DNA of 32,000 nt from Acaryochloris thomasi RCC1774 (GCF_003231495.1 NZ_PQWO01000001.1:180001-212000), one strand, 5' to 3'. Counted from the stretch's first letter, positions 9,886 to 32,000 are shown. The notes: generated by a model from the sequence alone, not told the origin. Numbers and translations are program-made.

Positions 9886-11319
9886 ATGAGCTATATAGAT
9901 TCTGAAATAGATTTAAATGAGATACATTTCTCACCACTATCAACCGTAGATATCGGAAGAGTTTTTGAATTCAAAAATCGATTATTTCGAGCTATATCCT
10001 GCAAAGAATCAGAGTCCGTAGTTGAGATGTTCTCCTGCGGAATGATTGATGAGCTTGAAAGCAAAAAATTATTCCCAAAAAGTTGGATCACAAAATACAA
10101 GCTCGATGGATATGGTCTAATCATTGAACATGAAAGAATTCCCTCAAAGAACTTCCCTTATGAGTGGAGCTTTTCTATGTTCAAAGATGCAGCTATCGCT
10201 CTTTTAGAAGTCAATATAATAGCTAGCAAGTATGGATACCAGACAAAAGACTGTCACGCCTATAACGTTATGTTTGATGGCTGTCTTCCTATGTTTGTTG
10301 ATCTAGGAAGCTTCGTAAAGACATATAATTCACATTCAAAATGGAACTGCTATAACAAATTCCTTCAATATTATTACTACATATTAAAGATTTGGGGAAG
10401 GGGGAACTCATATCTAGCGCGTGCAATCGTGCAAAGTGACAACACCGATATATACTCTCCACCCCGAAGCAGTGAGCTATACGGCTTATACAGAAAAGAC
10501 AACTCTTTTCTGATTCTTGTCGATAAGTCAAAGCAGATAGTAAGTCGCCTCTACTTCAGGCTTTATAACCTGTTGATAAAGCGAGGATTTAGTCCATTTT
10601 TATTCAGCCTTACCAAAGAGAAATTTTATAGCTTCCCGAGTTTACTTAGAAAGCTTGAAAAGATACCTGCTCCATGGGTAAGCAGTATCAGCAATGATGA
10701 TGAATCCAGCCTTAAAGGCGACAGCAGCATTCAGTCCAGTCCAAACTTCAACAAGATTATTGATCTTGTCAATCATCTCAATATAGAAACCGTTACTAAT
10801 ATCGGATGGCATCAAGATGTCTTCTCGAAAATATTACTGCAGGGAACAAATGTTCAGAAGATAGTTTGCATTGATCATGATGTGAATGCAGTTGAGCAAC
10901 TATACCTGTCATCTAAAAATATCGAAGGTGTCAGAGAGAGAATTACTCCTGTTTCTCTGAATAGTATTTATCCTAACGTAAGCTGCTTTACCCATTCTGA
11001 GGAGCTACTGCCTTATTCTGAGGGCAGATTTAAATCAGATGTGGTAGTTGCATTAGACCTAACCAATCACTTGCTGATATTTGAGAAGTATTCGATAGAC
11101 TGGGTTTTTAATATGCTGTCAAGGTACAGTAAGAGATACGCTCTTATCGAATTTGTACCCTTCGATTTTTGCCTAGAGAAAGGCAAACCTTCTCCTCTTT
11201 CTTCACAATATACGTCGGACTGGTTTAGAGATGCGTTTAGTAAGTATTTCCGCATTATCTTAGAAGAGAAACTAGAGAATGACAGGATTATTTTTTGTGG
11301 TGAGTTACTGACAATTTAG
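9886..11319 (+). CDS. Methyltransferase-like protein (PrmA/NoeA-like family with PYEWSF N-domain) with a degenerate SAM-binding loop
   Basis: 477 aa. The N-domain reads FPYEWSFSMFKDAAIALLEVNIIASKYGYQTKDCHAYNVMFDGCLPMFVDLGSF, matching the pattern I recall for this family (PYEWsFsqLKDAAL...LKDAsAYNIqF..GkPvFIDtlSF). In the C-terminal Rossmann-like part, the expected DLGANTGxFS reads TNIGWHQDVFS. The gene is very AT-rich relative to the rest of the window. Confidence 0.75.
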   Translation: MSYIDSEIDLNEIHFSPLSTVDIGRVFEFKNRLFRAISCKESESVVEMFSCGMIDELESKKLFPKSWITKYKLDGYGLIIEHERIPSKNFPYEWSFSMFKDAAIALLEVNIIASKYGYQTKDCHAYNVMFDGCLPMFVDLGSFVKTYNSHSKWNCYNKFLQYYYYILKIWGRGNSYLARAIVQSDNTDIYSPPRSSELYGLYRKDNSFLILVDKSKQIVSRLYFRLYNLLIKRGFSPFLFSLTKEKFYSFPSLLRKLEKIPAPWVSSISNDDESSLKGDSSIQSSPNFNKIIDLVNHLNIETVTNIGWHQDVFSKILLQGTNVQKIVCIDHDVNAVEQLYLSSKNIEGVRERITPVSLNSIYPNVSCFTHSEELLPYSEGRFKSDVVVALDLTNHLLIFEKYSIDWVFNMLSRYSKRYALIEFVPFDFCLEKGKPSPLSSQYTSDWFRDAFSKYFRIILEEKLENDRIIFCGELLTI

Positions 11320-12932: not shown

Positions 12933-13148
12933 AGGGTTACAGAACCTGCTCAAGCAACTTTGAGGCGTTCGAGACTTAAGATCTAACGTTAATTATCACA
13001 GCCAGAGCGAACCGATGTTCCACCTCAAGAGACACAATTACCATAACGGATCGAGCGGCTTCACTACAGTGATACGGGTCACTGATACCAACTCTTTATA
13101 TGGATGACCTAAATTGGAAGGGTCTCTATTGAGAGAGTATAGTTCTGA

Positions 13149-14061: not shown

Positions 14062-14712
14062 ATGGTGATCGCAGCACCGGAACCACGCGCTGAATTACGC
14101 CCTACTGGAGAACAGCGGGTTGTGCTGTGGGGCTTATCTTGGGAAGACTATTTACAGATTTTGAATACGCTGCCTCAGTCCCGTGGCTCTCGCTTGATCT
14201 ATGACGATGGAGTGCTAGAAATCACCGTGCCGCTAGAAGCACATGAGTTTTCGGGTCGCTTGATTGAGCGTTTCATCATAACGCTGGTTGAGTTGATGAG
14301 CCTGCAGATTAAGACAATGGGGTCAACCACAATGAACTATCCCCATTTAAAAAAGGGGGCAGAACCTGACAACGCTTACTATATTCAAAACCAACCGCTG
14401 GTAAAGGGACGCAAGGTTGATTTCAGACAGGATCCGCCGCCCGATCTGGTCGTTGAAGTTGACATTACCCATACAGATATTGCGAAGAATCAGTTCTATT
14501 CCAGCCTTGGCATTCCTGAGTTCTGGCGGTTCAATGGCAAGATATGGCGGATCTATCAGCTTCAGGAGGGGGTTTATGTAGAGGTTGAAGCGAGTCCTAC
14601 GTTCCCTCTGGTGCCAAAAGAGCGACTATACACTTTTCTGGAACAGGCGAAAGAGGATGAAATAGAGGCGGTGCGATCTCTGAGGGCTTGGTGGAGCACT
14701 GTTCAATCGTGA
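14062..14712 (+). CDS. Uma2-family (DUF820, PD-(D/E)xK-like) endonuclease, intact
   Basis: 216 aa. It reads ...SWEDYLQILNTLPQSRGSRLIYDDGVLEITVPLEAHE...GAEPDNAYYIQ...PPPDLVVEVDITHTD...YSSLGIPEFWRF.... This is the typical Uma2 layout, including the E-x-D/E-V-D catalytic-core pattern. Confidence 0.85.
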   Translation: MVIAAPEPRAELRPTGEQRVVLWGLSWEDYLQILNTLPQSRGSRLIYDDGVLEITVPLEAHEFSGRLIERFIITLVELMSLQIKTMGSTTMNYPHLKKGAEPDNAYYIQNQPLVKGRKVDFRQDPPPDLVVEVDITHTDIAKNQFYSSLGIPEFWRFNGKIWRIYQLQEGVYVEVEASPTFPLVPKERLYTFLEQAKEDEIEAVRSLRAWWSTVQS

Positions 14713-14726
14713 GGGGTAAGAACCTT

Positions 14727-15980
14727 CTACAAACCGCGATCTCGCTCCAAATCCGCAATGACGGTCTCAAAATACCACTCTTCAGATCGACCCGGATACT
14801 GATGTTTTGCCTGCCGAAGAAAGCGTTCTGCGATCGCCCACTGACCGCCCACCAAGGCCATTAGCTGCTTGCGAAGCTGTTCCTCTCGGGTTTCAGGGGT
14901 GACTGACTTAGAGGTTTGAACTTGCTGTAGCGTTGCCAACGCCTGTTTGTGACCCACCCAATCTTCTTGATCGACGTATAAACTGATGGCGCGCTGTAGA
15001 TCTGCGATCGCAGATAGTTTCTCCCCCGCATCCAAGTAGGCCAGACCACGTTGATAAAAGGCGGCGGCATGGTCGGGCTTAAGCTGGAGCGCCTCGGCAT
15101 AGTCTTCCACCGCACCCATGACGTGCCCCATCTTGTGATAGGCCATCCCCCGAGCCACGTAGTTCTGGGCCTGCTGCGGATCGAGGTTGAGAGCGTGATT
15201 GAAGTCGGCCACGGCCCCTGGATAATCGTCTAGCTGCAGTCGGGCGTGACCGCGATTTCTGTACACAATTGCCTGCTGAAAGTGGAGCTGCAGAGCTTGG
15301 TTGAAGTCCGATAGCGCTTCTGAATATTTACCCTGCTTACATCGGACAATGCCGCGACAGCAGTAGGCTTTGCCATCTCGGGGGTCTGCGGTCAGAATCC
15401 AGTTGATGTCGGCGAGAGCCTGCTGAATATTACCCTGCTGGGCCTGCTCGACAAGCTGTTCAAAATAATCTTTCTCAGACCTGATGCCGCGCTTCGGGGC
15501 AACCTTTGACTCAGTCGGCTGGAGTGTTTCAACCGTCGCTAAACACTGCCGCGCCCCCTCAACATCGCGCCGATCGATAAACAGCTCCGCTGCCTTTCTA
15601 AAGGAGGTGACAGCAGCCTTCGTATTTCCCTGCTTGCGCTGAATGACGCCCCGGAGACGGTGGGCTGAGGCATGGTCTGCATCACATCGAATCGCTTCCT
15701 CAACGTCTGCTAGTGCTCCTGGCAGATTTTGTAAGGCTAAGCGGGTTAAGGCACGGCCATAGTAAGGTAGGACGGATTGACCATCCATGCCAATGGCTTG
15801 GGTATAGTCTGAGATGGCTTCGTGAAGCTGACCGAGATCGTAGTGAGCCAGTCCTCTTTGACTATAGATATTGGCGCGGTGGGGGTGATGCTCAATGGCT
15901 TTGCTGAAAGATGCGATCGCATCTCCATATCGCTGCTGTTGAGCTTGTTCTAAACCCCTTTGATAGAAATCATCGGTCAT
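14727..15980 (-). CDS. TPR-repeat protein with C-terminal '...W..E.VI.DLERDR' motif
   Basis: 417 aa with many 34-residue TPR units (for example AIASFSKAIEHHPHRANIYSQRGLAHYDLGQLHE and AVADFNHALNLDPQQAQNYVARGMAYHKMGH). Its start lies 5 nt after the stop of the upstream minus-strand gene, so they probably form an operon. Confidence 0.9.
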   Translation of the reverse strand: MTDDFYQRGLEQAQQQRYGDAIASFSKAIEHHPHRANIYSQRGLAHYDLGQLHEAISDYTQAIGMDGQSVLPYYGRALTRLALQNLPGALADVEEAIRCDADHASAHRLRGVIQRKQGNTKAAVTSFRKAAELFIDRRDVEGARQCLATVETLQPTESKVAPKRGIRSEKDYFEQLVEQAQQGNIQQALADINWILTADPRDGKAYCCRGIVRCKQGKYSEALSDFNQALQLHFQQAIVYRNRGHARLQLDDYPGAVADFNHALNLDPQQAQNYVARGMAYHKMGHVMGAVEDYAEALQLKPDHAAAFYQRGLAYLDAGEKLSAIADLQRAISLYVDQEDWVGHKQALATLQQVQTSKSVTPETREEQLRKQLMALVGGQWAIAERFLRQAKHQYPGRSEEWYFETVIADLERDRGL

Positions 15981-15985
15981 AGCTT

Positions 15986-17281
15986 TTAGTCTTCTGACCT
16001 ATTGAGGCGCTGCTGCCATTCTGCATCTAGTTTATCTGCTTGCTCAATCTCTTGATCAACGAGATCTTTCTCCGTGGTGTAGCTCAATCGGTCGGTGGTG
16101 ACCACAGACTGAGCCGCAAAGTTTTGGGCATAGCGGATTTTCTGCTGCAGGTGAGTATCGGCTTCGTTAAGCGCCATCGCGTAATCGCGCCGTACATCAT
16201 TGCGGGCCTCAAGCTTGGCATTCTGACGCTGCAGCCAAAAGTAGCGCACCAGTGGGACGCCCAAGAAGGCAACGCCGTAGCCGAGCAAGACCCAAATCAT
16301 CGATTGCGCAAAGGCAACAAGCCCCCCAAGCTGGAGAGCAATCGTACCGTCTCCGAGCATGTACCACAGCAAAACGGCTCCCACAAAATTGAAGGTACCT
16401 AGACCAATTGCCCACGCTCTCTGATTGCTGCTGGCTTGACTGAAAGGCCAAGGGAACTCGCGCAAAAAAGCGGCAACTGACTGCTGATCCGATTGCGTAG
16501 CTGTAGACTGCAAATCCGGGAACCGGTAGATAATTTCACCGTTAGGGCTAACCTCCGGCTGACCATTGAAGCGAGACAGAACCGGAATCATATAGTACTC
16601 ATCGTCCTCTGGCTGCTCGACCAAGTCCAAATAGGGGGAAATTTGCTCAGCAACAACGGCACCGCGATTGTTGCGAATCACTGTAGCAATCTCTTGCCAG
16701 CGTCGATCTTCTAAATTGGCATTGGGGTTGCCGTCTCCGAACAAGAACGAAAAGATGGCCTCGAAAAAGTTCATCTGCTCAGACCCACGAAGCCGCTGCC
16801 GCCGAGCGCGACCGTAGGACGGATTAAAAAACCAAAACAGATCTGGGCCGAACCAGAATCGTGGCACAAACATCGAGCCACCGAAGCTAGAGCGGCGGCG
16901 ATCGTCGTTTTGCTGGCTGCTCTGAAGGGCGAGGAAGATAGTTGCGATCGCAACCACAATCAGCAGAATAGACAGCAGCAGCATGATGCCGAACGAAATC
17001 CGAATCAGATAAAATAGCACCGCCCATACTGAGGCCCACATGGCCTGCAGCCGCAGCCGCAGATACTTATCCCGCAGAACCGACCGAAAATTCTCAGGAA
17101 ACAGATAGGCGATCTCACCAGAGTCTGAAACCTGCAGATTTCCGGACACCTCAGAGGCCAAAGCCAGCAGACCGCGCTGCGTCGTATCAATATCTAAACC
17201 GGCTCGTGCAGAGACATCGCCCACGGTGACTCGATAGTCGAGCTGCTCCACAGTGGACATGATTTTAGGATCAAGCGTCAT
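15986..17281 (-). CDS. Conserved hypothetical integral membrane protein (431 aa)
   Basis: It is a long uninterrupted ORF with cyanobacterial codon usage. Hydrophobic helices include WASVWAVLFYLIRISFGIMLLLSILLIVVAIATIFLAL, AIGLGTFNFVGAVLLWYML and LGGLVAFAQSMIWVLLGYGVAFLGVPL. The C-terminus is acidic and coiled-coil-like. I do not assign a family confidently. Confidence 0.8.
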   Translation of the reverse strand: MTLDPKIMSTVEQLDYRVTVGDVSARAGLDIDTTQRGLLALASEVSGNLQVSDSGEIAYLFPENFRSVLRDKYLRLRLQAMWASVWAVLFYLIRISFGIMLLLSILLIVVAIATIFLALQSSQQNDDRRRSSFGGSMFVPRFWFGPDLFWFFNPSYGRARRQRLRGSEQMNFFEAIFSFLFGDGNPNANLEDRRWQEIATVIRNNRGAVVAEQISPYLDLVEQPEDDEYYMIPVLSRFNGQPEVSPNGEIIYRFPDLQSTATQSDQQSVAAFLREFPWPFSQASSNQRAWAIGLGTFNFVGAVLLWYMLGDGTIALQLGGLVAFAQSMIWVLLGYGVAFLGVPLVRYFWLQRQNAKLEARNDVRRDYAMALNEADTHLQQKIRYAQNFAAQSVVTTDRLSYTTEKDLVDQEIEQADKLDAEWQQRLNRSED

Positions 17282-17590: not shown

Positions 17591-17775
17591 AGTTTACATA
17601 GCGTTACAATTCACTCATATTTCAATGTTCTGCCTCCTTACTTTGAAAGCAGTCATCGTCAACTCAGTCTTTGAGTGCTTACTCCCGAACGCTATGGGCA
17701 ACTCTAGATCCGCTCTCATCTCGATTCCCCAACTCAATAATTGTATTTTCCAGTCACCCCACACCCCTTTGCATC

Positions 17776-18723
17776 ATGAAAACAGCCTCTAACGATTTAG
17801 TCCGCTCCTATCTGCAGGAAATTGCTCGGTTTCCTCTGCTGACCCACGAGCAAGAGATTCAATTGGGCAAGCAAGTTCGGCAGTATGTTGAGCTTCAAGC
17901 CATTCAAGCAGATCTGATTGAATGCCTAGACCGAGAGCCGACCTTAGCTGAATGGTCTGCTAAGACTGACCTATCGAAGGTAGAGCTTCAGCAGGCGATC
18001 TCTTTGGGCGAAGCCGCTAAGCGCAAGATGGTAGAAGCTAACCTGCGACTGGTGGTTTCAGTGGCAAAGAAGTACACCAATCGCCAGGTGGAACTTTTAG
18101 ATCTGATTCAAGAAGGCACCATCGGCCTACAGCGTGGCGTTGAGAAATTTGACCCGATGAAGGGTTACCGCTTTTCGACCTATGCTTACTGGTGGATTCG
18201 GCAAGCCATGACCCGCGCCATTGCCGAAAAAGGCCGCACGATTCGTCTCCCGATTCACATTACTGAAAAGCTCAACAAAATCAAGAAAACCCAGCGCCAA
18301 CTTTCTCAGACGCTAGGCCGCAACGCCACGGCAGAAGAGCTGGGAGCAGAGCTAGACCTGACGCCCAAGCAAGTACGCACCTACCTCAAGCACGGCCGTC
18401 AAACCTTTTCACTAGACGTCCGCATTGGTGAGAAGCAGGACACAGAACTAGGAGATTTGCTTGAAGATGATAGTCAATCTCCTGAAGACTATGCCGCTAG
18501 CTCTCTACTAAAAGACGATCTGCGCCAGCTGATGGCAGAGTTGACGGGTCAACAACAACAGGTATTAGCCCTCCGCTTTGGCCTCGAAGATGGAAAAGGC
18601 TTAACGCTGGCAAAAATTGGCGAAATGCTCAGCGTTAGCCGTGAGCGAGTGCGCCAGATTGAGCGCGAGGCTTTATCGGTTCTGCGTCAGAACAAGTCTG
18701 CACTGCAGGAATACCTCACCTAG
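17776..18723 (+). CDS. Group-2 sigma-70 family RNA polymerase sigma factor (RpoD-like, 315 aa)
   Basis: Region 1.2 is [28 protein letters not shown]. Region 2 is [63 protein letters not shown]. Region 4 is [16 protein letters not shown]. There is no long region 1.1, hence group 2. I take the start at ATG 17776 rather than the track's upstream start at 17671. Confidence 0.95.
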
Positions 18724-20818: not shown

Positions 20819-22618
20819 ATGGAACGTTTTAACTTCACCGTCATCCAACGCTTTTGGGCGATCGCAAAGTCCTACTGGTCGAGCGATAAGAAATGGCAGG
20901 CCCGAGGGCTGCTGCTGCTCGTCGTCATTCTATCGCTGGGATACACGGGCCTGAGCGTGGTCCTCAATAACCAGCGCGGCGCAATGATTTCGGCGCTCTC
21001 GGCTCAAGATGAATCACGGTTCTGGCACACGATCATTATCTTTGCTGGGGTCTTAGTGGCCTATGCCCCTATTTACGCGGGGTATACCTACTTGCGAGAT
21101 CGGCTGGGTCTGCAGTGGCGACAGTGGCTGACAGAGCATTTCATTGATCACTATTTTCAAGATCGCTCCTTCTACAACTTGGCCGGAGGAGCTGGTGAAA
21201 TCGATAACCCTGACCAGCGAATCGCGGAAGATATTCGCAGCTTCACTCAGGAATCCCTTGCCTTTGCCCTCGTCGTGATTAGTTCACTGCTGGGGATTGT
21301 GGCCTTCAGCGGCGTGTTGTGGAAAATATCGAAACCGCTGGTGCTGTTCCTGGTTCTCTATGCGCTGGTGGGAACCCTGTTGACGGTGGGCATCTTCGGC
21401 AAACCGTTAGTCCGCCTTAATTTCGCGCAGCTCAAGAGAGAAGCTGACTTTCGTTTCAGCATGGTGCGCATTCGAGAAAATGCAGAGGCGATTGCTTTCT
21501 ATCGAGGTGAAGAACGCGAATCTGAGCAGGTTAAAAGCCGCTTTGATGAAGTGTTCGAGAACTTCAAACGCCTGATTTTCTGGCAGCTTAATCTCAACTG
21601 TCTTACCAACGCCTATGAATTTATTCCGTTTATTCTGCCTGCCATCGTCGTTGCCCCTGGCATCTTTGCCGGTGATCTAGAGGTGGGAAAAGTCACGGAA
21701 GCGCAGGGCGCGTTTATTCAGGTCTTTTTCTCATTGAATTTGATTGTGGCCCGCTTCCAGGAGCTGACCTCCTTTGGCGCTGGCATCAATCGTTTGTACA
21801 CCTTTGCTGAGGGCTTAGGTCAGGTCGAAAGTAACAAAGGCCAGGAAGAATCTACGGCAGGTGATTCCGTGAAGACGGACAGCACGAAAGATGAAGAAGT
21901 GCAGGGGACTGACAGTAAAGAGAGGCAGGATGACGCCGCACTAACAGTGGCTGCGGCACATCCGACCATTACCACGGAGATTTCAGATCGGCTTGAGGTC
22001 GCAAACTTAACTCTGTTTACCCCCAACTATCAGCAGATGCTCGTCGAAGATCTATCGGTGGAGCTATCGACCGGAGAGGGATTGTTGATTCGGGGACCGA
22101 GTGGATGTGGAAAGAGTTCGCTTTTACGTGCGATCGCAACCCTCTGGAACTCTGGGAGCGGAACCTTGTATCGACCGGAGCCAGAGCAGATGTTGTTCTT
22201 GCCCCAGCGTCCGTACATGATTCTAGGCACACTGCGCGATCAGATGCGCTATCCCCATCTCAATGCGGAACTAGAAGATGACAAACTTCACCACATCCTA
22301 GAGACGGTCAACCTACCCGACCTTGATCACCGTTTTGGCGGCTTAGACGCTCGACAGGACTGGTCTTCAGTCCTGTCATTAGGGGAGCAGCAGCGCCTGA
22401 CATTTGCGCGTTTGCTCTTGAACCAGCCAAAGTACGCCATTTTGGACGAAGCCACCAGCGCCCTTGATTTAGAGAATGAAGCCTCACTCTACCAACGGTT
22501 ACGGGAGACGCAAACCACCTTCCTCAGTGTCGGGCACCGAGAAACGCTCGTTGACTATCATCAACGGATCCTAGATCTATCCGCAAACCATACTTGGCAG
22601 CTCAGCAAGCGCGAATGA
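20819..22618 (+). CDS. ABC half-transporter, fused permease plus ATPase of the ABCD/SbmA-BacA-like type
   Basis: The N-terminal TMD carries the characteristic IDNPDQRIAEDIRSFT motif of the ABC_membrane_2 family. In the C-terminal NBD, Walker A is GPSGCGKSS, the signature is LSLGEQQR and Walker B is AILDEATSALD. An acidic low-complexity linker of about 45 aa separates the TMD and NBD. Confidence 0.9.
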   Translation: MERFNFTVIQRFWAIAKSYWSSDKKWQARGLLLLVVILSLGYTGLSVVLNNQRGAMISALSAQDESRFWHTIIIFAGVLVAYAPIYAGYTYLRDRLGLQWRQWLTEHFIDHYFQDRSFYNLAGGAGEIDNPDQRIAEDIRSFTQESLAFALVVISSLLGIVAFSGVLWKISKPLVLFLVLYALVGTLLTVGIFGKPLVRLNFAQLKREADFRFSMVRIRENAEAIAFYRGEERESEQVKSRFDEVFENFKRLIFWQLNLNCLTNAYEFIPFILPAIVVAPGIFAGDLEVGKVTEAQGAFIQVFFSLNLIVARFQELTSFGAGINRLYTFAEGLGQVESNKGQEESTAGDSVKTDSTKDEEVQGTDSKERQDDAALTVAAAHPTITTEISDRLEVANLTLFTPNYQQMLVEDLSVELSTGEGLLIRGPSGCGKSSLLRAIATLWNSGSGTLYRPEPEQMLFLPQRPYMILGTLRDQMRYPHLNAELEDDKLHHILETVNLPDLDHRFGGLDARQDWSSVLSLGEQQRLTFARLLLNQPKYAILDEATSALDLENEASLYQRLRETQTTFLSVGHRETLVDYHQRILDLSANHTWQLSKRE

Positions 22619-24114: not shown

Positions 24115-25935
24115 ATGGATGTAGAGATTGCGCTACGAATTATCGATGAAGCTGTGTTTGATTTTATTGAGAGGCATCTCAGCGCCCCGGAAGTTGAAAT
24201 TGTTCGTGGCACATGGGTGAGGTCTACCTACGACGAGATGGCTGAAACCTCTCCCTTCAGCATGAATTATCTCAAGCGTGATGTTGGCCCAAAATTCTGG
24301 AAGTTACTTTCTAAGGCTTGGGCCGAAGACGTTAATAAGTCCAACCTTCAGACCGTATTAGAGCGACGGACCTCTAACTTTGCTTCAAAGACATTGGCTC
24401 GTGGAGCCTCAGCTCCTCCGCACCAAGATTGGACAATGAGCGCCCCACTGTGCCTGCCTTTGGAGGGACGAGAAGGAGAGCTGGCTCAGCTAAAGGATTG
24501 GCTACAAGCTGAACCCTCTTCTGTCGTCGCGATCCAGGGGCTCCCGGGTGTAGGTAAGACAGGTTTGGCCCGGCAGCTAGCAGAAAACGTGCAGAGTAGT
24601 TTTGAGTATGTTGTTTGGCATTCCTTGGGACAAGCTCCTGTGCTGCAGCGTTCGTTAGAAGTCCTGTCAGCCCAGCTACCGGAGGTTACCACCTCCGCAG
24701 ATGAGGCCCTCGCTAGGGTACTAGCGCAATGCCGTCAGTATCGATGCCTGCTTGTGTTGGATGGGGTTGAGTCTATTCTGCAGCCAGGACAATTGGCGGG
24801 TCACTACCGTAGCGGATACGAAGACTATGCGGCGTTTTTTGAGCAGATGACGGTGGCAACTCACCGGAGCTGTCTAGTGATCACAACGCTTGAAGTTCCG
24901 ACTTCCCTGTTGATGCAGAGTCAGACTCCTTCTTTTAGGTATCTATCGCTGTCAGGGCTACCAGAAAATGATGCGACTCTTTTGCTCACCCAGGAAGGTT
25001 TGAAAGCCAAAAAGGCTTGGCCTCTGTTAATTCATCAGTATCAAGGGCATCCACTAGCTCTAAAAATGGTTGCCCAGAGGATTCAGCGTTTGTTCAACGG
25101 CGATGTGAGCGGCTTTCTCGCCCAAGAGAATGTTCTGACGGGAGGCCTCGAGTCTTTGCTGTCAGGTGTGTTCAATCGTTTAACACAGATTGAACAAGAG
25201 CTACTCTACACTCTGGCCTGTGCTTCGGCTCCCCTTTCGCTGGTTAATCTAGAGTCATTGTTGCCAACTCAGGGCAATTTGTTAGAGGCCCTAGGGTCTT
25301 TGCAGGCCAGGTCTTTGCTAAAGACCCAGGATCAGAAGGCAGTGGCTTACTTTACACTTGCTCCCTTTGTGCAGGCATTTGCGATCGCAGATCTAACGCG
25401 TCAGCTCCGTGAGCATCCCACTGCTGAACACCCGCAACCGTTGAGCCTCAAGATTCCAGAACTGAAGCTATCCGCAGAGCACGAGCCCGTCAGCCTCAGT
25501 CAGTGGATGGCGGGGGAAATTGAACCGGATTGGCAGCCCCTCGATCGGCTGCTGGCCGATACGGCTCAACTGATTCCAACGCTGCGTAGCCTATCTTCTC
25601 TACGGGACGGTAGCTCGGTTAAGCGTTTGAAGTATCTCAAGCTCAGTTCAGAAGACCCGCAGTCTCAAGTGGCCCTACTGGTGATGATTACGCCACAGGC
25701 CGGAGAGCGAATGTTGATGCATGTACAGCTCCAGCCCGGTGGTGAAGTTGCTGAACTACCGCCCCAAATACACCTTAAGCTCCTTGACGAATCAGGTGAG
25801 AGCTTGCGGGAGGTGCAATCACAGCAGCACGATAGCTTCATCCAACTTCCTAGCTTCAGCGGTAAATTAGGAGAAAGCTTTGGCTTGCAGATTGTGCTGG
25901 GAGACAACTGCATCAGTGAGACCTTTGTGATCTAA
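24115..25935 (+). CDS. STAND NTPase: N-terminal LuxR/sigma-r4-like HTH, NB-ARC-type P-loop module and DUF1822-like C-terminal domain
   Basis: 606 aa.
- The N-terminus LSAPEVEIVRGTWVRSTYDEMAETSPFSMNYLKRDVGPKFWKLLSKA follows the HTH pattern common at the N-terminus of cyanobacterial STAND proteins.
- Walker A is IQGLPGVGKTGLA and Walker B is CLLVLDGVE.
- CLVITTLE corresponds to the hhhTTR motif, and YQGHPLALKMVAQ to the GxPLA motif.
- The last roughly 170 aa read LSQWMAGEIEPDWQPL...VALLVMITPQAGERMLMHVQLQPGG...LPPQIHLKLLDESGESLREVQSQQHDSFIQLPSFSGKLGESFGLQIVLGDNCISETFVI. This matches my recollection of the C-terminal module of cyanobacterial DUF1822 proteins. Confidence 0.85.
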   Translation: MDVEIALRIIDEAVFDFIERHLSAPEVEIVRGTWVRSTYDEMAETSPFSMNYLKRDVGPKFWKLLSKAWAEDVNKSNLQTVLERRTSNFASKTLARGASAPPHQDWTMSAPLCLPLEGREGELAQLKDWLQAEPSSVVAIQGLPGVGKTGLARQLAENVQSSFEYVVWHSLGQAPVLQRSLEVLSAQLPEVTTSADEALARVLAQCRQYRCLLVLDGVESILQPGQLAGHYRSGYEDYAAFFEQMTVATHRSCLVITTLEVPTSLLMQSQTPSFRYLSLSGLPENDATLLLTQEGLKAKKAWPLLIHQYQGHPLALKMVAQRIQRLFNGDVSGFLAQENVLTGGLESLLSGVFNRLTQIEQELLYTLACASAPLSLVNLESLLPTQGNLLEALGSLQARSLLKTQDQKAVAYFTLAPFVQAFAIADLTRQLREHPTAEHPQPLSLKIPELKLSAEHEPVSLSQWMAGEIEPDWQPLDRLLADTAQLIPTLRSLSSLRDGSSVKRLKYLKLSSEDPQSQVALLVMITPQAGERMLMHVQLQPGGEVAELPPQIHLKLLDESGESLREVQSQQHDSFIQLPSFSGKLGESFGLQIVLGDNCISETFVI

Positions 25936-26009
25936 GAGCCCCATGCAGATGCTAACTTTTTCCAGCGTGACCCGTCGGCACAACGCATCGTGAACTTGAG
26001 GCGGCGTTG

Positions 26010-28403
26010 ATGTATCAAGTGATTTTGAGCTTTGGCAAAGGGACATTGGCAGAGGGGTTTGCCAACGTCAATGTCCAGCTTTTTGATCCGCAGCAGCAGC
26101 CTATGATGCGCGATAGCTGCAGTCTACCTGCTGCACCAGAATTGATGGCCCTTTATCAGTTGTGGCAATCGCAGTATCAAGCCCATTACCAAAACTTGGG
26201 CTGGTCTACCCGGATTGACATCCATGAACCAACCGCCGTCAGCAGCCGTTTTTCCCGGCGAGAATTTGATCTGCACTGCACCCAACTGCCGGTGTTGCTG
26301 AACCGCTGGCTACGGCACGAGTCTTTTGTTGCCATTGAGCAAACGCTGCGGACCTACTTATCCTTTCATCATCAGATTCAGCTGATTCTAGAGACCGACG
26401 ATCAGGATCTTAAGCTTCTACCGTGGCATAGCTGGCAGTTTGTCATCGACTATGCCCAAGCCGACGTTGCCTTGAGTTTGCCTCGCAGCCGTCCGCCGCT
26501 TCAACATTTTGCCCCCCGGAAAAAATCAGTTAAAATTTTAGCCGTTCTCGGTAGCCCTGTACTGGGCGTCCATGACCGCAAAATTGATGTCGCCACCGAT
26601 CGCGCTTTTATAGAGCAGCTTGCCCACGTAGATGCAACGTTTTTAGTGGAACCCAGCCGTGCAGAGCTAACCCAAAGCCTCTGGGAACAGCGCTGGGATA
26701 TTCTATTTTTTGCTGGCCATAGCACCCGCGTTGATGGGCAAACGGCACTGCTGCTGAACCATGATCCAGAACAAAATAGTCTGACGATCAACGAATTCCA
26801 TCATGCTCTCAACCACGCTGTTGAGCAGGGGCTGCAGCTCGCCATCTTTAATTCCTGCGACAGCTTGGGCTTGGCCTGGACCCTAGCAGAGCTAAACATT
26901 CCCCAGACCATCGCCTTCCGAGATGCAGTGCCTGATCCAGTTGCCCATGCGTTTCTCAAGCACTTCTTAGCGGCGTTTGCGGCGGGTATGCCAACCCCAC
27001 AGGCCGTCCGCACCGCCCGTGAGCAACTCCAAGAATTTGAGCAGCATTGTCCCTGTGCCAGTTGGTTGCCTATTATTTGTCAGAATCCCACGGTTTTACC
27101 CCTTACCTGGTTAGATCTACAGGGCCACTCTTCTGACTTGCAGCTTCCCCCACGAGTACCGGCCTGGATTCCAGTGGTTGCCAGCCTGTTGGTAACAGGG
27201 GGGCTGATTTTAGTACGCACGTTAGGCGTTCTGCAGGACTTAGAGCTGGAGGCATTTGATCAACTAATGCAGTGGCGGCCTGCAGAGGCATCAGACGCCA
27301 GGTTCTTGGTCGTGGCGATTGACGAAGCCGATTTTCAGTATCAGCGGCAGCAGGGCATGCGACCAGAAGGACACTTAGCAGATCGGGCACTCAAGCAGCT
27401 ACTGGACAAAATACAGCCCTACGAACCAACCATTGTTGGTTTAGATCTCTACCATGATGTTGAATTTGAGCCAGAATTAAAACCTTTAGTTCTCAATAAC
27501 TCCAGGTTTATAGCGGTTTGTGAGATTGCCCAAACGGAAGGGAGTTTTACTCCTGGCCCTAATCCAAGCATTCCAAGTCCGCCAGGCATCCCGTCCGAGC
27601 GTTTAGGATTTACGGATTTACCTGAAGATCCGAGAAAGATGATTCGGCGGCAGTTGTTGTATATGGACCCAGTCAGGGTCTGTGATACAGACCAGTCGTT
27701 GAGTCTTCGGATTGCTCGCCAGTATCTAACCTTGTCTGGCGGTCCGATACCCCGGCTGACGTCAAATCAGGTGCTTCACATCGGTAATGTGGAGTTTGAG
27801 CCGCTCTCCCCTGATGCGGGTGGATACCAGCTTCCAGCAGGAGAAGCAGAGGGCTATCAGGTGATGCTGAACTATCGAAGGGCTCAATTCCCGATGGTGA
27901 ATCTACGTGATTTATTGGGGGGAGGGTTAGACGCTCAGCTTTCTAGCTTGATACCCGGGCGGATTATCTTGATTGGAGTGGTAAAGCCCGATTTGGATAC
28001 CCACCCAACAGCCTTTGGAACGCGACAGGTGAATGGTGAGCAACCGGGCGTCGTGATTCAGGCCCACATGATTAGTCAAATCTTGAGTGCGGTTGAGCAG
28101 GGGCGACCGTTGATCTGGTGGTGGCCGCAAGGAGTTGAATACCTGTGGATTGGAACTTGGTCGTTGTTAGGCAGTCTACTGGTGTGGAGATGGTCTTCTA
28201 CAGTTGTACGTATTGCCTCGCTTACTGTTGCTGTAGGTGTGCTAATTGGGAGCTGTATGGGTGTCTTACTAATTGGGGGCTGGATTCCCCTGGTTCCTGC
28301 AATGATGGGGTTGTTAATTTCAGGGGGAGTTGTAATGGTGTACACAAACGTTAAGGTCACTCATGTAGGCCAGCCGCCGACATTAGGGGGGCGCGATGCT
28401 TAA
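26010..28403 (+). CDS. Membrane protein: N-terminal cytoplasmic CHAT-like (caspase-fold) domain, TM helix, periplasmic CHASE2 domain and three C-terminal TM helices
   Basis: The ATG at 26010 has GAGG 8 nt upstream; the track start is TTG 26007. The CHAT-like part carries WDILFFAGHS (His codon 26718-26720) and LQLAIFNSCDS (Cys codon 26856-26858). TM1 is WIPVVASLLVTGGLILV. The CHASE2 signature is LQDLELEAFDQLMQWRPAEASDARFLVVAIDEADF...IVGLDLYH. Three terminal TM helices follow, and the protein ends about 25 aa after the last one. Confidence 0.85.
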   Translation: MYQVILSFGKGTLAEGFANVNVQLFDPQQQPMMRDSCSLPAAPELMALYQLWQSQYQAHYQNLGWSTRIDIHEPTAVSSRFSRREFDLHCTQLPVLLNRWLRHESFVAIEQTLRTYLSFHHQIQLILETDDQDLKLLPWHSWQFVIDYAQADVALSLPRSRPPLQHFAPRKKSVKILAVLGSPVLGVHDRKIDVATDRAFIEQLAHVDATFLVEPSRAELTQSLWEQRWDILFFAGHSTRVDGQTALLLNHDPEQNSLTINEFHHALNHAVEQGLQLAIFNSCDSLGLAWTLAELNIPQTIAFRDAVPDPVAHAFLKHFLAAFAAGMPTPQAVRTAREQLQEFEQHCPCASWLPIICQNPTVLPLTWLDLQGHSSDLQLPPRVPAWIPVVASLLVTGGLILVRTLGVLQDLELEAFDQLMQWRPAEASDARFLVVAIDEADFQYQRQQGMRPEGHLADRALKQLLDKIQPYEPTIVGLDLYHDVEFEPELKPLVLNNSRFIAVCEIAQTEGSFTPGPNPSIPSPPGIPSERLGFTDLPEDPRKMIRRQLLYMDPVRVCDTDQSLSLRIARQYLTLSGGPIPRLTSNQVLHIGNVEFEPLSPDAGGYQLPAGEAEGYQVMLNYRRAQFPMVNLRDLLGGGLDAQLSSLIPGRIILIGVVKPDLDTHPTAFGTRQVNGEQPGVVIQAHMISQILSAVEQGRPLIWWWPQGVEYLWIGTWSLLGSLLVWRWSSTVVRIASLTVAVGVLIGSCMGVLLIGGWIPLVPAMMGLLISGGVVMVYTNVKVTHVGQPPTLGGRDA

Positions 28404-29184
28404 GCCAAGATATATTCTAAGTCTTCTACTCGGCGGTAGTTTGGCAGGAGGAGGTTTGATGGCCGGAGCACTGTCTGCTCAAGAGCTGTCGACCGCTCAG
28501 GCACAGATTACGTTCCTGGCTCCCAATGCGGCCCAGCGACAAAAAGATCGACGGCGATGGGGGCGACCCACAACCCGAACCCCTGGTGGAACCCGCGATC
28601 GCTGCGCTCAAAGGCTGATTGCGCTGGTACCCAGCCCCGATGCAGTAGCGCTCAGCTCGGGTCAATGTCTAGAAGAGTCGGTTTCAGATCGGGCATTGAC
28701 GCTCACAGAGACGCCAACGCTGTGGTTTTACGTTCCGCCACTGGCCGAGCCAGAACGACGAGCGGAGCTAGTGCTGCTTCAGAAACACCGTGAGGTTAGC
28801 AAGCAACGGGTAACGCTGCCTGCAACGCCGGGTATTTTTGGGGTGCAGCTCAAGGGTCCACTGGCGGCAAACCAGCTATATGGCTGGAGCTTCACGGTTC
28901 TGAAGCAACCCCAAAGTCCCTCTCAAAATCCGACGGTGGAGGGATTAATCAGATACGCAACGTCGAACCCTAAGGATTTGAGGGTGGCACACCTGCCGGA
29001 CCAGGCATACAGACCGGGCCAACTGCGGCAATATGCTCAATCCGGAATTTGGCACGATGCCTTGACGGCCCTCGCCCAGCAGCGATGCCAGAATCCGGCA
29101 AGCCAGAGCTGGAAAAGCTTTTTAGCATCTGCGGGGTTAGATGCGATCGCAACCCAACCGATCCTGAATTGCGAAGTGCTGTAG
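28396..29184 (+). CDS. Secreted DUF928-like protein (262 aa)
   Basis: The ATG overlaps the upstream stop by 8 nt (ATGCTTAA). The signal peptide is MLKPRYILSLLLGGSLAGGGLMAGALSAQ. The motifs TPGGTRDRC, LIALVP, PTLWFYVP, YGWSF, NPTVEGLI and YAQSGIWHDAL fit my recollection of DUF928 (GGTRG...AL.P...PTF.WYVP...Y.W...YA..GIWYD). Confidence 0.75.
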   Translation: MLKPRYILSLLLGGSLAGGGLMAGALSAQELSTAQAQITFLAPNAAQRQKDRRRWGRPTTRTPGGTRDRCAQRLIALVPSPDAVALSSGQCLEESVSDRALTLTETPTLWFYVPPLAEPERRAELVLLQKHREVSKQRVTLPATPGIFGVQLKGPLAANQLYGWSFTVLKQPQSPSQNPTVEGLIRYATSNPKDLRVAHLPDQAYRPGQLRQYAQSGIWHDALTALAQQRCQNPASQSWKSFLASAGLDAIATQPILNCEVL

Positions 29185-29196
29185 CCCTCTACACCC

Positions 29197-31887
29197 TCAA
29201 CGCCAATCCCCCACTAACAGGAAGGGTGCCCAAAAGCCAGGAGCCTCGTAACCGGGCGTCTTTAGCAGCTTCACCTGCGCCTGCCGCAGCGCTTCAGCCT
29301 TGGTGATTTGGCCCTGCTGGGTGGTCAACGTTTGATAGAAATGACGCATGAGCTGTGCCGTTGAGCGATCGCCAATGGACCATAGCGAAGCCATCGTACT
29401 GCGAGCGCCGGACTGCACGGCCAGCCCCGCCAACCCCAAAATCGCCCGGTTGTCCCCCGCCGCCGTGGTACAGGCACTGAGCACCAATAGTTCAATGGGC
29501 TGCAGTCCTTGGGGAGCACGATCTTGGAGAATACTGCTGAGCTGACTCCCCTGGAGGCGCTGGTTCCAGGTCTGTAGATAGGTTTGCTCTGGATCTGAAC
29601 TAAATTGCCCATGGGTGGCAATGTGAACAACGCTGTAGGGTGTGCTCTGAATTTCTCTTTGCAGCTCTACTGGGGTAAACGCCTGATTCAAGTGCTGCCG
29701 AGTCGGGAGGTAGGCACTGATCTGGGTCAGCTCTTCCTCGACCTGTGGCAGAGGGGGCGCAGCCTGCAGGGGCGGCGTTTCTGATAGACCGAAGGTTAAG
29801 GCCCGTAGCCGAGTCTGGCTGAGAGAACGCGACGGCAAAAGCTGGAGGCCAGGGACAAGGGCAACGGCATATCCTTTCTCCACCAAGTACTGATCGCCAT
29901 CGTGGAGTGCCGCCATGGGCAAATCGCGGAAGGAACCATCCAGGACAAAAACCAGATTCTTAATCTGCGCCAGCTCTGACTCTGCAGGACGAATCATCCA
30001 ATCGTAAACCTGCTGTGAGAGGGCATGGACATCCTTAGAGATATAGCTTTTTTCCAGCTCAACTCTAAGCTGCGCCAGCGTTGCTTCTACTTGCGGCTGT
30101 GGCAGTCGGGTCGTATGACGCTGTATCTGTCCACCGGGTAGCCTAACGATCACCTCGATTCGATCTGATAGAAGAATGGGGTAAATGAGAGCGGTATCTG
30201 CAGCCAAGGGTTGCTGGGCTAAGGACACGATTGAGGCCAGGTCACAGCGTAGAAAATTTTCGAGTTCTACGCGCTGCAGAGTATCAATGACCTCCATTGC
30301 CTGCTGTAGCCGAGCATTATTATTGAGATCAGGGGACTGCAGCAGTAAATCGACAAATTGGCGATACACAGGCTCGACGTCGGCCTGAAATGACGCTTGA
30401 ATATTGCGGTCCAGGGCTAAGAGATCTCGGCGGTTGTTGGTGAGGGTTGCGATCGCAGCTTCATAGGCATTTAGGGCGGCGTCCCGCTGTCGGCGAGCTT
30501 GATAAATCCGTCCCAGCTGCCACTGCCACTGACCCGCTAAGTCAGTTGCCCTAACGGTTTGGGCCTTAACCAATGCCTGCTCTGTCAATCGCTGCGACTC
30601 TGCCCACTGCTGATTTTGCTCATAGATTTGCCCCAACAAACCGAGGGCGTGGGACTCAGCACGGGTATTTTGCAGTTCCTGGGCCTGTCGAAGGGCTGTA
30701 TTGGCCATCGTGAGTGCCAAGGGCCGCTGCTCTGTGCCTAGACGCACGAGGCTCTGGGTAAAGTGGAGCTGGGCATTGACGGCCTGATAGCTAGTGGGGA
30801 GATGGGCAATACCGCGACGACGGAGCGCGGCGATCACTTGATCAATCTGTGGCTTGTCTTGTAAGGACATCTGCCCTGCGGGGGGGGGGGCGTCTTGGTT
30901 TTGCTGTAGCTCGATGCCTAGACTGAGCCGATGCAGTTGACTTTGCAACGCTAGAGCCTGAATCTGGGCATCGGAGGAGAGGGCTAAGTCTGCCTGCTGC
31001 CAGTAGGCTAGAGCCTGCTGGGCAGGGGCCAGGGCCGCGTCAGGCAAAATCGCGGCGCTGGTGATTAGGGGCCGTAGGTGCTGATACCGCCGATGCTCCA
31101 GCTTGCCGAGGTTCAACAGCGTGATGGCTCGATCAACCGGTGTTTGAGGCAGAGCTAAACTGGCCTGCAAAATAGTGCCCGCCGCGTCAAGCTGTCCCGC
31201 CAGCCGAAGGCTGTTGCCGAGGGTGCGTAGGCCCACTTGCTTAAGCTGCGGATCAGACTGAGCCTCAAAGTGACGCAGGACAGACCGCCACTGTTCTGGG
31301 GTGGACAGATCGCAATCAGAGGGCAAGTTGCTGGCCTGCAGCAGGGTTTTACAGGCGCGCCGATAAAGTCCTAGCACCTCCATTGCCTGGGCTTGGTTGA
31401 TCCGGCTACCGGCTGTGCCGGTGGCGTCATTCAACTGCTGATAAACGGCGGTCGCCTGCTGCCAGCTCGTGAGGGCGGCTTCCGGTTGCCCTAGAATGAG
31501 CCGCAGACGTCCTTGGGTATTGAGAGCTTGGGCATAGGGCTGCGATGGGCCAGACGATTGCAGGAGAGTGAGACTGGTTGCGATCGCATCTTCTGCCTCA
31601 GACAGCCGCCCCAGCTGCTGATAGGCCAGCGAGAGATAGTTCAAAACGGTGGCATGGCCGAGCACGTCACCTACAGAAAGCAATCTTTCTTGCTCCTGTT
31701 GCCAAATCCTCGCAGCTGCCGAAAACTGACCCTGCCGATATAGCGCGCGGCCCTGAGCAATGCCCTGCGAACTGTCTGCATCTATAGGTATCACTTCTGG
31801 CGTAGAGGATAAAACCTGAGCTGCCCCCAGCAGCATTGCCCCACTCAAAGCCGTCCCGATACACACAGAGGTCAACGAAGAACGCAT
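29197..31887 (-). CDS. Secreted TPR-repeat CHAT-domain protease (caspase-like, clan CD)
   Basis: I take the start at the ATG that is the complement of 31885-31887, with AGGAG 5 nt upstream; the track start at 31950 is less likely. MRSSLTSVCIGTALSGAMLLGAAQVLS is signal-peptide-like. A long TPR-like region follows. The C-terminal CHAT domain carries YSVVHIATHGQF (His) and IELLVLSACTTAAG (Cys), then ...FWAPFLLVGDWR. Its stop lies 12 nt from the convergent DUF928 stop. Confidence 0.95.
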   Translation of the reverse strand: MRSSLTSVCIGTALSGAMLLGAAQVLSSTPEVIPIDADSSQGIAQGRALYRQGQFSAAARIWQQEQERLLSVGDVLGHATVLNYLSLAYQQLGRLSEAEDAIATSLTLLQSSGPSQPYAQALNTQGRLRLILGQPEAALTSWQQATAVYQQLNDATGTAGSRINQAQAMEVLGLYRRACKTLLQASNLPSDCDLSTPEQWRSVLRHFEAQSDPQLKQVGLRTLGNSLRLAGQLDAAGTILQASLALPQTPVDRAITLLNLGKLEHRRYQHLRPLITSAAILPDAALAPAQQALAYWQQADLALSSDAQIQALALQSQLHRLSLGIELQQNQDAPPPAGQMSLQDKPQIDQVIAALRRRGIAHLPTSYQAVNAQLHFTQSLVRLGTEQRPLALTMANTALRQAQELQNTRAESHALGLLGQIYEQNQQWAESQRLTEQALVKAQTVRATDLAGQWQWQLGRIYQARRQRDAALNAYEAAIATLTNNRRDLLALDRNIQASFQADVEPVYRQFVDLLLQSPDLNNNARLQQAMEVIDTLQRVELENFLRCDLASIVSLAQQPLAADTALIYPILLSDRIEVIVRLPGGQIQRHTTRLPQPQVEATLAQLRVELEKSYISKDVHALSQQVYDWMIRPAESELAQIKNLVFVLDGSFRDLPMAALHDGDQYLVEKGYAVALVPGLQLLPSRSLSQTRLRALTFGLSETPPLQAAPPLPQVEEELTQISAYLPTRQHLNQAFTPVELQREIQSTPYSVVHIATHGQFSSDPEQTYLQTWNQRLQGSQLSSILQDRAPQGLQPIELLVLSACTTAAGDNRAILGLAGLAVQSGARSTMASLWSIGDRSTAQLMRHFYQTLTTQQGQITKAEALRQAQVKLLKTPGYEAPGFWAPFLLVGDWR
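30880..30890. repeat. Homopolymer G11 (C11 on the coding strand) inside the TPR-CHAT coding sequence
   Basis: Read directly as ctgc-ggggggggggg-cgtc. On the coding strand it reads GAC GCC CCC CCC CCC GCA, giving D-A-P-P-P-A. It is the longest homopolymer I saw in the window; the other runs I noticed were 7 nt. Confidence 0.95.
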
Positions 31888-32000
31888 AAGACTCCTAGAG
31901 TAAAAATTGTCAATAAGAGTGACAGGGAACAGCAGCCTGAGCAAAGGCATTCGGCGTCACGTTCGGAGCCTGAGCTAGCAGCACAAGATTCCCTCTAGCA

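Follow-up and report, generated by a model that had tools for sequence, protein, structure and literature searches.

An EACC2-CHAT-CHASE2 membrane protein of Acaryochloris thomasi as one member of a large cyanobacterial family

The gene considered here lies on a 32,000-nucleotide (nt) stretch of the genome of Acaryochloris thomasi RCC1774 (GCF_003231495.1, NZ_PQWO01000001.1:180001-212000), hereafter ‘the window’, and encodes a predicted membrane protein of 797 amino acids (aa), hereafter ‘the sensor’. Around it (table 1) are found, upstream, a gene whose predicted product combines a helix-turn-helix (HTH), a STAND-type nucleoside triphosphatase (NTPase) and the C-terminal half of DUF1822, and, downstream, genes for a DUF928 protein and a TPR-CHAT protein. 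In the sensor itself, a small N-terminal module and a CHAT domain are followed by one transmembrane (TM) helix, a CHASE2 region and three further TM helices. A first reading of the sequence (the original prediction) had taken this protein for an inverted CHASE2 receptor, whose only soluble domain, a caspase-like fold, lies upstream of the sensing region and would couple extracytoplasmic sensing directly to proteolysis, or to a protease-like scaffold. Homology searches place the gene in a large cyanobacterial EACC2+caspase+CHASE2 family, and the coupling of extracytoplasmic sensing to cytoplasmic proteolysis by a predicted protease can soundly be inferred from the architecture, the topology, the caspase fold, the invariant dyad and the lack of a C-terminal output domain. 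In all of these respects the original prediction held, whereas the rarity and novelty that it implied did not: architecture, neighbourhood and the idea of sensing coupled to proteolysis had all been published before, and the system is known computationally.

Gene model and architecture of the sensor

The open reading frame (ORF) recovered by our scan of the window is intact (plus strand, 26007/26010-28403). Its likely start is the ATG at 26010, with a GAGG motif 9 nt upstream, and its product is identical (100%) to the hypothetical protein C1752_00224 of A. thomasi RCC1774 in the NCBI protein database. CHAT and CHASE2 were both present in 120/120 of the best homologues retrieved by database search, whose lengths range from 620 to 838 aa (mostly 765–838 aa) with a query coverage of 93–100% for nearly all, the few shorter ones coming from short contigs. 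Past the fourth TM helix, the tail measures 0–30 aa (median 6) in 50 aligned homologues and approximately 10–14 aa in the sensor, and the start of the DUF928 gene precedes the sensor stop codon by 8 nt, an overlap shared with many relatives. Thus, given the identical NCBI protein, the uniform length of the family, the short tails and the overlapping downstream gene, no frameshift conceals a C-terminal output domain. The same observations refute the view that a frameshift or misassembly removed such a domain, or that the ORF is spurious, a view for which no supporting point was found and whose probability we regard as negligible. The truncation considered as a possible flaw of the original prediction therefore left no sign, and its claim of a missing C-terminal output was upheld, although the tail, put at about 25 residues, is shorter than stated.

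Table 1. Features of the sensor gene and of the neighbouring genes in the window (positions counted from its first nucleotide).
Feature	Position	Strand	Evidence or remark
Upstream partner, 606 aa	24115..25935	+	HTH + STAND NTPase + DUF1822 C-terminal half
EACC2-CHAT-CHASE2 membrane protein (sensor)	26010..28403	+	797 aa
EACC2-type N-terminal module, aa 1-121	26010..26372	+	three strands then three helices (predicted)
CHAT (caspase-hemoglobinase fold) domain, aa ~122-360	26373..27089	+	Pfam, Foldseek, hhalign
His237 codon (FFAGHS), putative catalytic His	26718..26720	+	aligns with HLATHG of TPR-CHAT
Cys283 codon (FNSCDS), putative catalytic Cys	26856..26858	+	aligns with LSAC of TPR-CHAT
TM helix 1, aa 387-408	27168..27233	+	hydropathy peak 2.02; AlphaFold2 helix 386-404
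CHASE2 ectodomain, aa ~409-705, predicted periplasmic	27234..28124	+	Pfam
TM helices 2-4, aa ~706-783	28125..28358	+	hydropathy, AlphaFold2, charges
Predicted cytoplasmic tail (14 aa) and stop codon	28359..28403	+	no output domain
DUF928 protein, 262 aa, N-terminal Sec-type signal peptide	28396..29184	+	Pfam DUF928 E 6.5e-38
TPR-CHAT protein, 917 aa, convergent with DUF928	29197..31950	-	Pfam CHAT E 9e-59 + TPR repeats

Pfam, hydropathy and AlphaFold2 agree on the order of CHAT-like domain, one TM helix, CHASE2 and three TM helices. The Pfam matches to CHAT (PF12770; aa 125-346, E 6.6e-14, 52.5 bits for a cut-off of 24) and to CHASE2 (PF05226; aa 400-723, E 3.5e-51, 174.7 bits for a cut-off of 26.3) are the only ones reported at E <= 0.01, on which ground an assignment to the orthocaspases or metacaspases of Peptidase_C14 was rejected.

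The fold of the CHAT region was examined on a full AlphaFold2 model for which 50 homologues were used (mean predicted local distance difference test score, pLDDT, 85.4). Foldseek returned 27 matches at E <= 0.001, almost all of them CHAT or caspase-clan proteins, the best being the activated SAVED-CHAT 8TL0 (E 8e-9), followed by separases (E 1e-7 to 1e-5), the Craspase subunit Csx29 (8D9G/7XSR; E 7e-7 to ~1e-6) and the anti-sigma factor DdvA (E 1.5e-4); gingipain also passed this cut-off, two of the 27 matches were chains of an unnamed ciliary-apparatus protein, and caspases and MALT1 ranked just below it. As modelled, the N-terminal domain thus has a caspase/CHAT fold, and the structural comparison by which the original prediction was to be judged came out in its favour as regards the fold, but not as regards the N-terminal boundary, since the domain (aa ~122-360) starts at ~122 rather than at about aa 170.

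The two motifs singled out in the original prediction are present (FFAGH237S and FNSC283DS). In the model, a strand at 231-235 precedes H237 and a strand at 277-281 precedes C283, and G236, H237, N281 and C283 are invariant in the 50 homologues, which share only ~40% identity. A search of the PDB with the profile of the sensor family gave zero matches at E <= 1, and the dyad was consequently assigned through Foldseek and through a profile–profile alignment with the TPR-CHAT family, in which H776, H780 and C827 are invariant; H237 and C283 align to H780 and C827 in a weak hhalign match (E 0.085). Another cysteine, Cys349, is nearly invariant; it belongs to a conserved PCAxWLP motif that immediately precedes TM helix 1.

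Concerning topology, no signal-like hydrophobic segment is found in the 386 N-terminal residues of the sensor, and only 1% of 88 family members display one in this region. Among the 50 homologues, the flank preceding the first TM helix contains on average 3.9 Lys+Arg and 1.1 acidic residues, against 1.9 and 2.2 in the flank following it; the loop between the second and third TM helices is basic, as is the tail, and no charge is found in the loop between the third and fourth. The three C-terminal helices fall between ~706 and 787 according to hydropathy and AlphaFold2. The lack of a signal peptide, the Lys+Arg bias before the first TM helix and the number of TM helices (four) therefore point to a cytoplasmic location of both termini, and the data fit a cytoplasmic EACC2-CHAT portion, a periplasmic CHASE2 and a cytoplasmic tail, in line with the cytoplasmic location originally proposed for the N-terminal domain. 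The profile match, the TM helices and the charge bias are those of a CHASE2 receptor, and an output domain following the last TM helix, missing here, is typical of such receptors without being strictly defining. Within the ectodomain, Cys504 (27519-27521) and Cys558 (27681-27683) are invariant in the 50 homologues, and a periplasmic disulfide between them is possible.

Modelled alone, aa 1-121 adopt a beta3-alpha3 arrangement (pLDDT 90). Foldseek found no significant match for this module among PDB structures (best E 0.09), and no weight attaches to the weak matches to Csx29 that recurred over ~61 columns (E 0.3-0.7). EACC2 might conceivably be a degenerate pseudo-caspase lobe like that of separase. 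Its profile was detected in 1,604 clusters at 50% identity when 1.84 billion proteins were searched. The match nearly always falls at the very start of the protein (residues 1 to ~125), where it is followed by CHAT and then by nSTAND1+WD40, nSTAND1+pentapeptide, NB-ARC+TPR, Pkinase+TPR, TPR alone, cyclase+CHASE2 or CHASE2; 23 plasmid records figure among the relatives. In their survey, Kaur et al. 2021 (eLife, PMC8195603) described EACC2 as a novel alpha+beta domain forming, together with a caspase, a constant N-terminal module ahead of a highly variable C-terminus, CHASE2 being one example. We assign aa 1-121 to this published domain because architecture and neighbourhood are identical, the comparison being made by architecture and not by alignment as the supplement of that study gave architecture strings. 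Indeed, the sensor and its relatives combine a small alpha+beta N-terminal domain directly before a caspase-like domain, the fusion of the same module to highly variable C-terminal regions and a neighbouring DUF1822 or TRADD-N+TPR gene. The neighbouring ECF-type sigma gene, which Kaur et al. (PMC8195603) found in most TRADD-N-independent neighbourhoods, is absent from the window; it is a majority trait, not a strictly defining one. The original prediction had set the first ~170 residues apart as an additional module of unknown role: a separate domain does exist, but it is confined to aa 1-121, aa ~122-170 (with the LLPWHSWQF motif) belonging to the N-terminal part of CHAT according to Pfam, the profile alignment and AlphaFold2, and it had already been published as EACC2. 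Two relatives (P0170, 977 aa; P0214, 961 aa) have an adenylate/guanylate cyclase placed after CHAT and ahead of TM helix 1 (EACC2-CHAT-cyclase-TM-CHASE2) and form a further case of a CHASE2 cytoplasmic partner located N-terminal to the sensor.

In the sensor family, over 3,272 clusters at 90% identity reached E <= 1e-5 out of the candidates that were scored, and at least 588 loci, with one genome per species, contain a relative; the best 80 of these at least 588 loci are almost all labelled cyanobacterial. A CHAT domain at the N-terminus without C-terminal output, which the original prediction presented as unusual, is thus common (at least 588 species-representative loci), within a family of thousands of members widespread in cyanobacteria. 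Neither is it new. Kaur et al. 2021 (PMC8195603) listed the EACC2+caspase+CHASE2 architecture and its neighbourhood, on computational grounds only, and Asplund-Samuelsson et al. 2012 (PMC3501461) had described a Trichodesmium protein with an N-terminal caspase homologue and a CHASE2 flanked by 1+3 TM helices, reading the topology in the same way, as a receptor outside and a protease free in the cytoplasm; this caspase-CHASE2 protein was also listed by Jiang et al. 2010 (PMC2853523).

Gene cassette and partner proteins

For the analysis of gene neighbourhoods, the ORFs of 80 related loci were clustered, and totals of 81 include the window itself. A DUF1822 gene was retrieved in 76/81 loci, upstream and on the same strand in 71 of them with a median gap of ~136 nt, and a DUF928 gene in 65/81, nearly always on the strand of the sensor and usually just downstream; in the window, DUF928 is predicted to be translationally coupled to the sensor gene. 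Sigma-like genes fall into two families of 31 loci each, characterized by Sigma70_r4/ECF matches or by weak r2/GerE matches, and sit ~1.2 kb upstream on the same strand, ahead of DUF1822 (about 31 + 31 of 80 loci). TPR-CHAT genes were found in 36 loci. A copy of the cassette is carried by plasmid pCC7120alpha of Nostoc PCC 7120, with the sensor WP_010999860.1, the sigma factor WP_323790861.1, the DUF1822 protein WP_010999862.1 and the DUF928 protein WP_010999859.1. Three loci (L044, L056 and L070) display two inverted copies of the cassette (DUF1822 + sensor) within one 18-kb stretch, with a second DUF928 in the duplicated cassettes of L056 and L070. In the window, the cassette spans 24115-31950 and is bounded on its upstream side by a divergent glycosyltransferase gene; on the other side it may continue past the window's end.

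The upstream partner departs from the most frequent arrangement. It consists of an HTH_VMAP-M9 domain (PF26355; aa ~1-110), a NACHT/NB-ARC STAND domain (aa ~118-290) and a DUF1822 region (aa 388-605) which matches only profile positions 149-370 (Pfam, E 1.6e-20). The HTH_VMAP-M9 label is that of a precomputed annotation, no match having been obtained for either N-terminal piece in a local copy of Pfam at E <= 1, and one homologue carries a GerE/LuxR HTH instead. This partner is the longest of the 79 DUF1822-type proteins examined, and the HTH-STAND-DUF1822 fusion is rare (~15 protein clusters), being found on contigs of the closest orthologues of the sensor. No sigma gene is present between 22693 and 24115. 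The nearest one (17671-18723) encodes a four-region sigma-70 and is separated from the cassette by genes for FtsH, an ABC transporter and a glycosyltransferase; it was rejected as a part of the cassette, being of the full-length group-1/2 type and lying beyond these unrelated genes and the divergent glycosyltransferase. In this lineage, a single HTH-STAND-DUF1822C protein seems to have taken the place of ‘sigma + DUF1822’.

The other partners differ in their predicted location. A signal-like hydrophobic N-terminus occurs in 94% of the DUF928 family, in 100% of the TPR-CHAT family and in 0 of the DUF1822 family, so that DUF928 and TPR-CHAT are predicted to reside outside the membrane, DUF1822 and the sensor's CHAT domain inside. 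A second, putative CHAT protease (TPR-CHAT) hence appears to be present in the periplasm. The TPR-CHAT protein of the window and all of the 25 relatives examined possess both the N-terminal hydrophobic segment and an invariant His/Cys dyad.

Looking at genes that share only one half of the sensor, a modular distribution of these partners emerged, which rests on a handful of loci:

— DUF1822 accompanies EACC2-CHAT. Where this module bears WD40 or pentapeptide C-termini, DUF1822, or a PIN domain fused to the C-terminal half of DUF1822 (DUF1822-C), still lies directly upstream: a Fremyella plasmid shows the order sigma-like, DUF1822, EACC2-CHAT-nSTAND1-WD40, and a Nostoc plasmid the order Xre-type HTH, PIN-DUF1822-C, EACC2-CHAT-pentapeptide. 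As it is kept upstream of EACC2-CHAT genes with other C-termini, DUF1822-C would be the constant companion of EACC2-CHAT, the part N-terminal to it being variable, which hints that DUF1822-C may tether different effectors to the protease. The PIN-DUF1822-C gene located directly upstream of an EACC2-CHAT-pentapeptide gene on the plasmid of Nostoc sp. UHCC 0870 occupies 4029-4970 of its locus (L083).

— DUF928 accompanies CHASE2. It follows CHASE2 genes devoid of EACC2, namely a CHASE2-GGDEF gene, two genes for stand-alone CHASE2 proteins (439 and 499 aa) and a different CHAT-CHASE2 gene next to trypco2 (pairs at L084 4227-6881, L086 2056-5546, L087 3448-5636 and L088 3245-5537). This suggests that DUF928 may be a general periplasmic companion of cyanobacterial CHASE2 sensors. 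On Nostoc punctiforme pNPUN01 (L086 1-4629), the EACC2-less CHAT-CHASE2 protein measures 857 aa, and its gene is preceded by CHAT and trypco2 genes and followed by DUF928.

Other genes recur less regularly around the cassette and could suggest a role in export, in which the CHAT domain would trim the leader of DUF928 or of a TPS-domain (haemagglutinin-like) substrate, as is done by peptidase domains in some ABC exporters. TPS-domain genes are indeed present in 27 of the 80 loci and ABC transporter genes in 20/80, an HlyD and a haemagglutinin-like gene adjoin the cassette copy on plasmid pCC7120alpha of Nostoc PCC 7120, and the window holds an ABC transporter at 20819-22618. However, these TPS and ABC genes are inconsistent neighbours, often on the other strand, the N-termini of DUF928 and TPR-CHAT are of the ordinary Sec type, CHASE2 is a sensor domain and not a channel, and EACC2-CHAT also occurs joined to STAND, WD40 and kinase domains, which are soluble, so that we consider such a function very improbable.

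A role in cell suicide deserves more attention. The protein could sense phage attack or envelope damage and act as an executioner of abortive infection, the CHAT protease degrading many proteins or activating toxic effectors and thereby killing or arresting the cell instead of throwing a specific transcriptional switch. Kaur et al. (PMC8195603) placed EACC2-caspase genes among counter-invader conflict systems, and orthocaspase cell-death models invoke CHASE2-linked caspase homologues; the plasmid records (23) of relatives, the neighbouring or fused effector-like domains (PIN, TIR and STAND NTPases) and the duplicated cassettes of L044, L056 and L070 go in the same direction. Against this, a search of PADLOC-DB 2.0 left the sensor and DUF928 without a match and gave only weak P-loop or TPR matches for their neighbours, which led us to reject a catalogued anti-phage defence system; and the commonest partners are sigma-like (~62/80 loci), or an HTH protein here, and point to a transcriptional output. 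An executioner function is, in our view, possible but rather unlikely.

The remainder of the window contains several features unrelated to the cassette. An IS4-family DDE transposase (5299-6696, minus strand) adjoins a 125-aa fragment (6827-7204, plus strand) corresponding to the C-terminal part of a group-1 glycosyltransferase, and this gene was probably disrupted by the IS4 insertion. An N6/N4 DNA methylase (3498-4499, minus strand), an HNH endonuclease (8249-8836, plus strand) and a Uma2-family endonuclease (14062-14712, plus strand) are scattered in the left half, which also comprises a low-GC stretch (9000-11000; 0.38-0.42) holding a 477-aa ORF (9886-11319) without Pfam match; taken together, methylase, endonucleases and low-GC stretch are suggestive of DNA that is mobile or related to defence. 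At 11415-12953 (minus strand), a class III adenylate/guanylate cyclase (catalytic aa 288-465) has a 287-aa N-terminal region without Pfam match, and a 431-aa ORF also without Pfam match (15986-17281, minus strand) is situated directly upstream of a 417-aa TPR protein on the same strand (14727-15980). Rfam and tRNA scans of the window detected nothing, and scans for promoter and terminator consensus sequences gave counts at background level, which are uninformative.

Comparison with known systems

Canonical CHASE2 receptors, which Zhulin et al. are said to have described in 2003, reportedly place their output domain after the last TM helix. Those encountered here, such as the CHASE2-GGDEF protein of L084, show the same succession of TM helix, CHASE2 and three TM helices and an adjoining DUF928 gene, whereas in the sensor the only predicted cytoplasmic domain comes before TM helix 1. 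Besides such receptors, there are CHASE2 proteins that stand alone and others that bear N-terminal effectors.

The closest described system is EACC2-caspase-CHASE2 (PMC8195603), which has the same order of small alpha+beta module, caspase-like domain and TM/CHASE2, the same neighbours (DUF1822/‘TRADD-N+TPRs’ upstream, a TM+beta-rich gene downstream and a TPR+caspase gene nearby) and the same proposed logic of stimulus-induced protease activation. One row of its supplement (Fischerella BAU04807.1/WP_016867683.1) displays exactly the gene order of the window, the TM+beta-rich gene being placed like DUF928 and the first gene coding for a DUF1822 family protein according to its NCBI annotation. 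The window differs from this system by the absence of a separate ECF-type sigma gene and by its partner, which keeps the C-terminal half of DUF1822 and adds HTH_VMAP-M9 and a STAND NTPase. The metacaspase-CHASE2 protein of Trichodesmium erythraeum IMS101 (PMC2853523, PMC3501461) likewise possesses an N-terminal caspase homologue, 1+3 TM helices and no C-terminal output; as it is classed as a Peptidase_C14-type metacaspase whereas the protein of the window matches CHAT, the two are likened by architecture only.

DdvA of Myxococcus xanthus (PDB 8ROT, PMC11506125) is, like the sensor, a membrane protein with a CHAT domain, and controls a sigma factor across the membrane. Its layout is nevertheless the opposite one, with a periplasmic CHAT, a cytoplasmic zinc anti-sigma domain, a single TM helix and no CHASE2, and its periplasmic part is resembled more by the secreted TPR-CHAT of the window than by the sensor. 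A DdvA-type anti-sigma factor was thus rejected: Pfam detects no anti-sigma domain, the CHAT domain is predicted to be cytoplasmic and the likeness is limited to the CHAT fold. The comparison still raises the question of a non-catalytic scaffold, in which the CHAT domain would tether the DUF1822 partner, along with the sigma factor or HTH-STAND, at the membrane in the manner of an anti-sigma factor and free it upon a CHASE2 signal. The structural likeness to DdvA, whose CHAT active site is incomplete, and the constant, docking-type DUF1822-C domain that accompanies the module lend themselves to this idea. It accords less well with the lack of a recognizable anti-sigma domain, and with the invariance of H237, C283 and the flanking Gly and Asn across such divergent homologues, as expected of a working active site, and we judge it improbable.

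Craspase (Cas7-11 + Csx29 TPR-CHAT) and SAVED-CHAT, which provide the best structural matches of the CHAT domain, illustrate CHAT proteases that stay inactive until a sensor is triggered and then cut a dedicated partner; their sensors, however, lie in the cytoplasm and recognize RNA or cyclic nucleotides, and membrane segments, CHASE2 and EACC2 are all absent from them. Together, DdvA/DdvS and Craspase constitute precedents linking CHAT proteases to sigma/anti-sigma control. HetF of Anabaena/Nostoc PCC 7120, a membrane-anchored protein with an N-terminal CHAT protease that cleaves the regulator PatU3 (PMC9457339), offers a further precedent; it differs by its one TM helix, its TPR repeats and the lack of CHASE2. 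The sensor was rejected as a HetF orthologue, as it scores only 23.2 bits against NCBIfam NF045509 (cut-off 1,200), over residues 203-284.

Proposed mechanism and significance

The account that we favour, with moderate confidence, runs from an envelope cue through CHASE2 to a cytoplasmic CHAT protease and thence to the cleavage or activation of the DUF1822-type partner. CHASE2, probably with periplasmic DUF928 and perhaps with periplasmic TPR-CHAT, would detect an envelope or extracellular cue; a conformational change would cross the four-helix membrane bundle and activate the cytoplasmic CHAT protease, which would then cut itself and/or a dedicated partner docked through its DUF1822 C-terminal domain. 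This cut would release or activate the N-terminal part of the partner system (a sigma factor in most loci, a PIN nuclease in one, HTH-STAND here) and lead to a transcriptional or defensive response. The scheme is essentially the one proposed by Kaur et al. (PMC8195603), namely stimulus-induced protease activation with TRADD-N/DUF1822 and an ECF-sigma output.

Several points weigh against it. The literature found on CHAT+CHASE2, DUF1822, DUF928 and EACC2 consists of computational surveys, with no experimental study of any member. The profile–profile match of the CHAT domain to that of the neighbouring TPR-CHAT is weak, as mentioned above, and the case of DdvA indicates that an intact dyad does not prevent a CHAT domain from appearing structurally incomplete (PMC11506125). 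Finally, as the window lacks the separate sigma gene of most loci, the output step is extrapolated here.

The predicted presence of one CHAT protease on each side of the inner membrane would also accommodate a more elaborate scheme, a proteolytic relay across this membrane formed by the four genes, with DUF928 as a general co-receptor of cyanobacterial CHASE2 domains, which is conceivable but which we hold with considerable reserve. The cue that CHASE2 reads in the periplasm would be produced or displayed by TPR-CHAT and/or DUF928, both secreted, and EACC2-CHAT would then cut the DUF1822-docked partner in the cytoplasm. In the Acaryochloris lineage, the HTH-STAND NTPase would be freed and act, in place of the sigma factor of other loci, as a transcription switch licensed by the protease.

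The finding adds no new kind of system. Its modest additions are the modular split between DUF1822-C with EACC2-CHAT and DUF928 with CHASE2, a predicted placement of DUF928 and TPR-CHAT in the periplasm, and the HTH-STAND-DUF1822 fusion, which is rare. CHASE2 ranks among the commonest bacterial sensor domains, although we know of no ligand for it and the profile search of the PDB retrieved no solved structure, and CHAT proteases have lately been shown to act as signal-licensed switches in CRISPR-linked defence and heterocyst development. The thousands of cyanobacterial proteins wiring CHASE2 to CHAT, with fixed partners, are a good experimental entry to both domains, and the pCC7120alpha copy lies in a genetic model, Nostoc PCC 7120. 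The value of the family is that of a tractable and very widespread signalling design.

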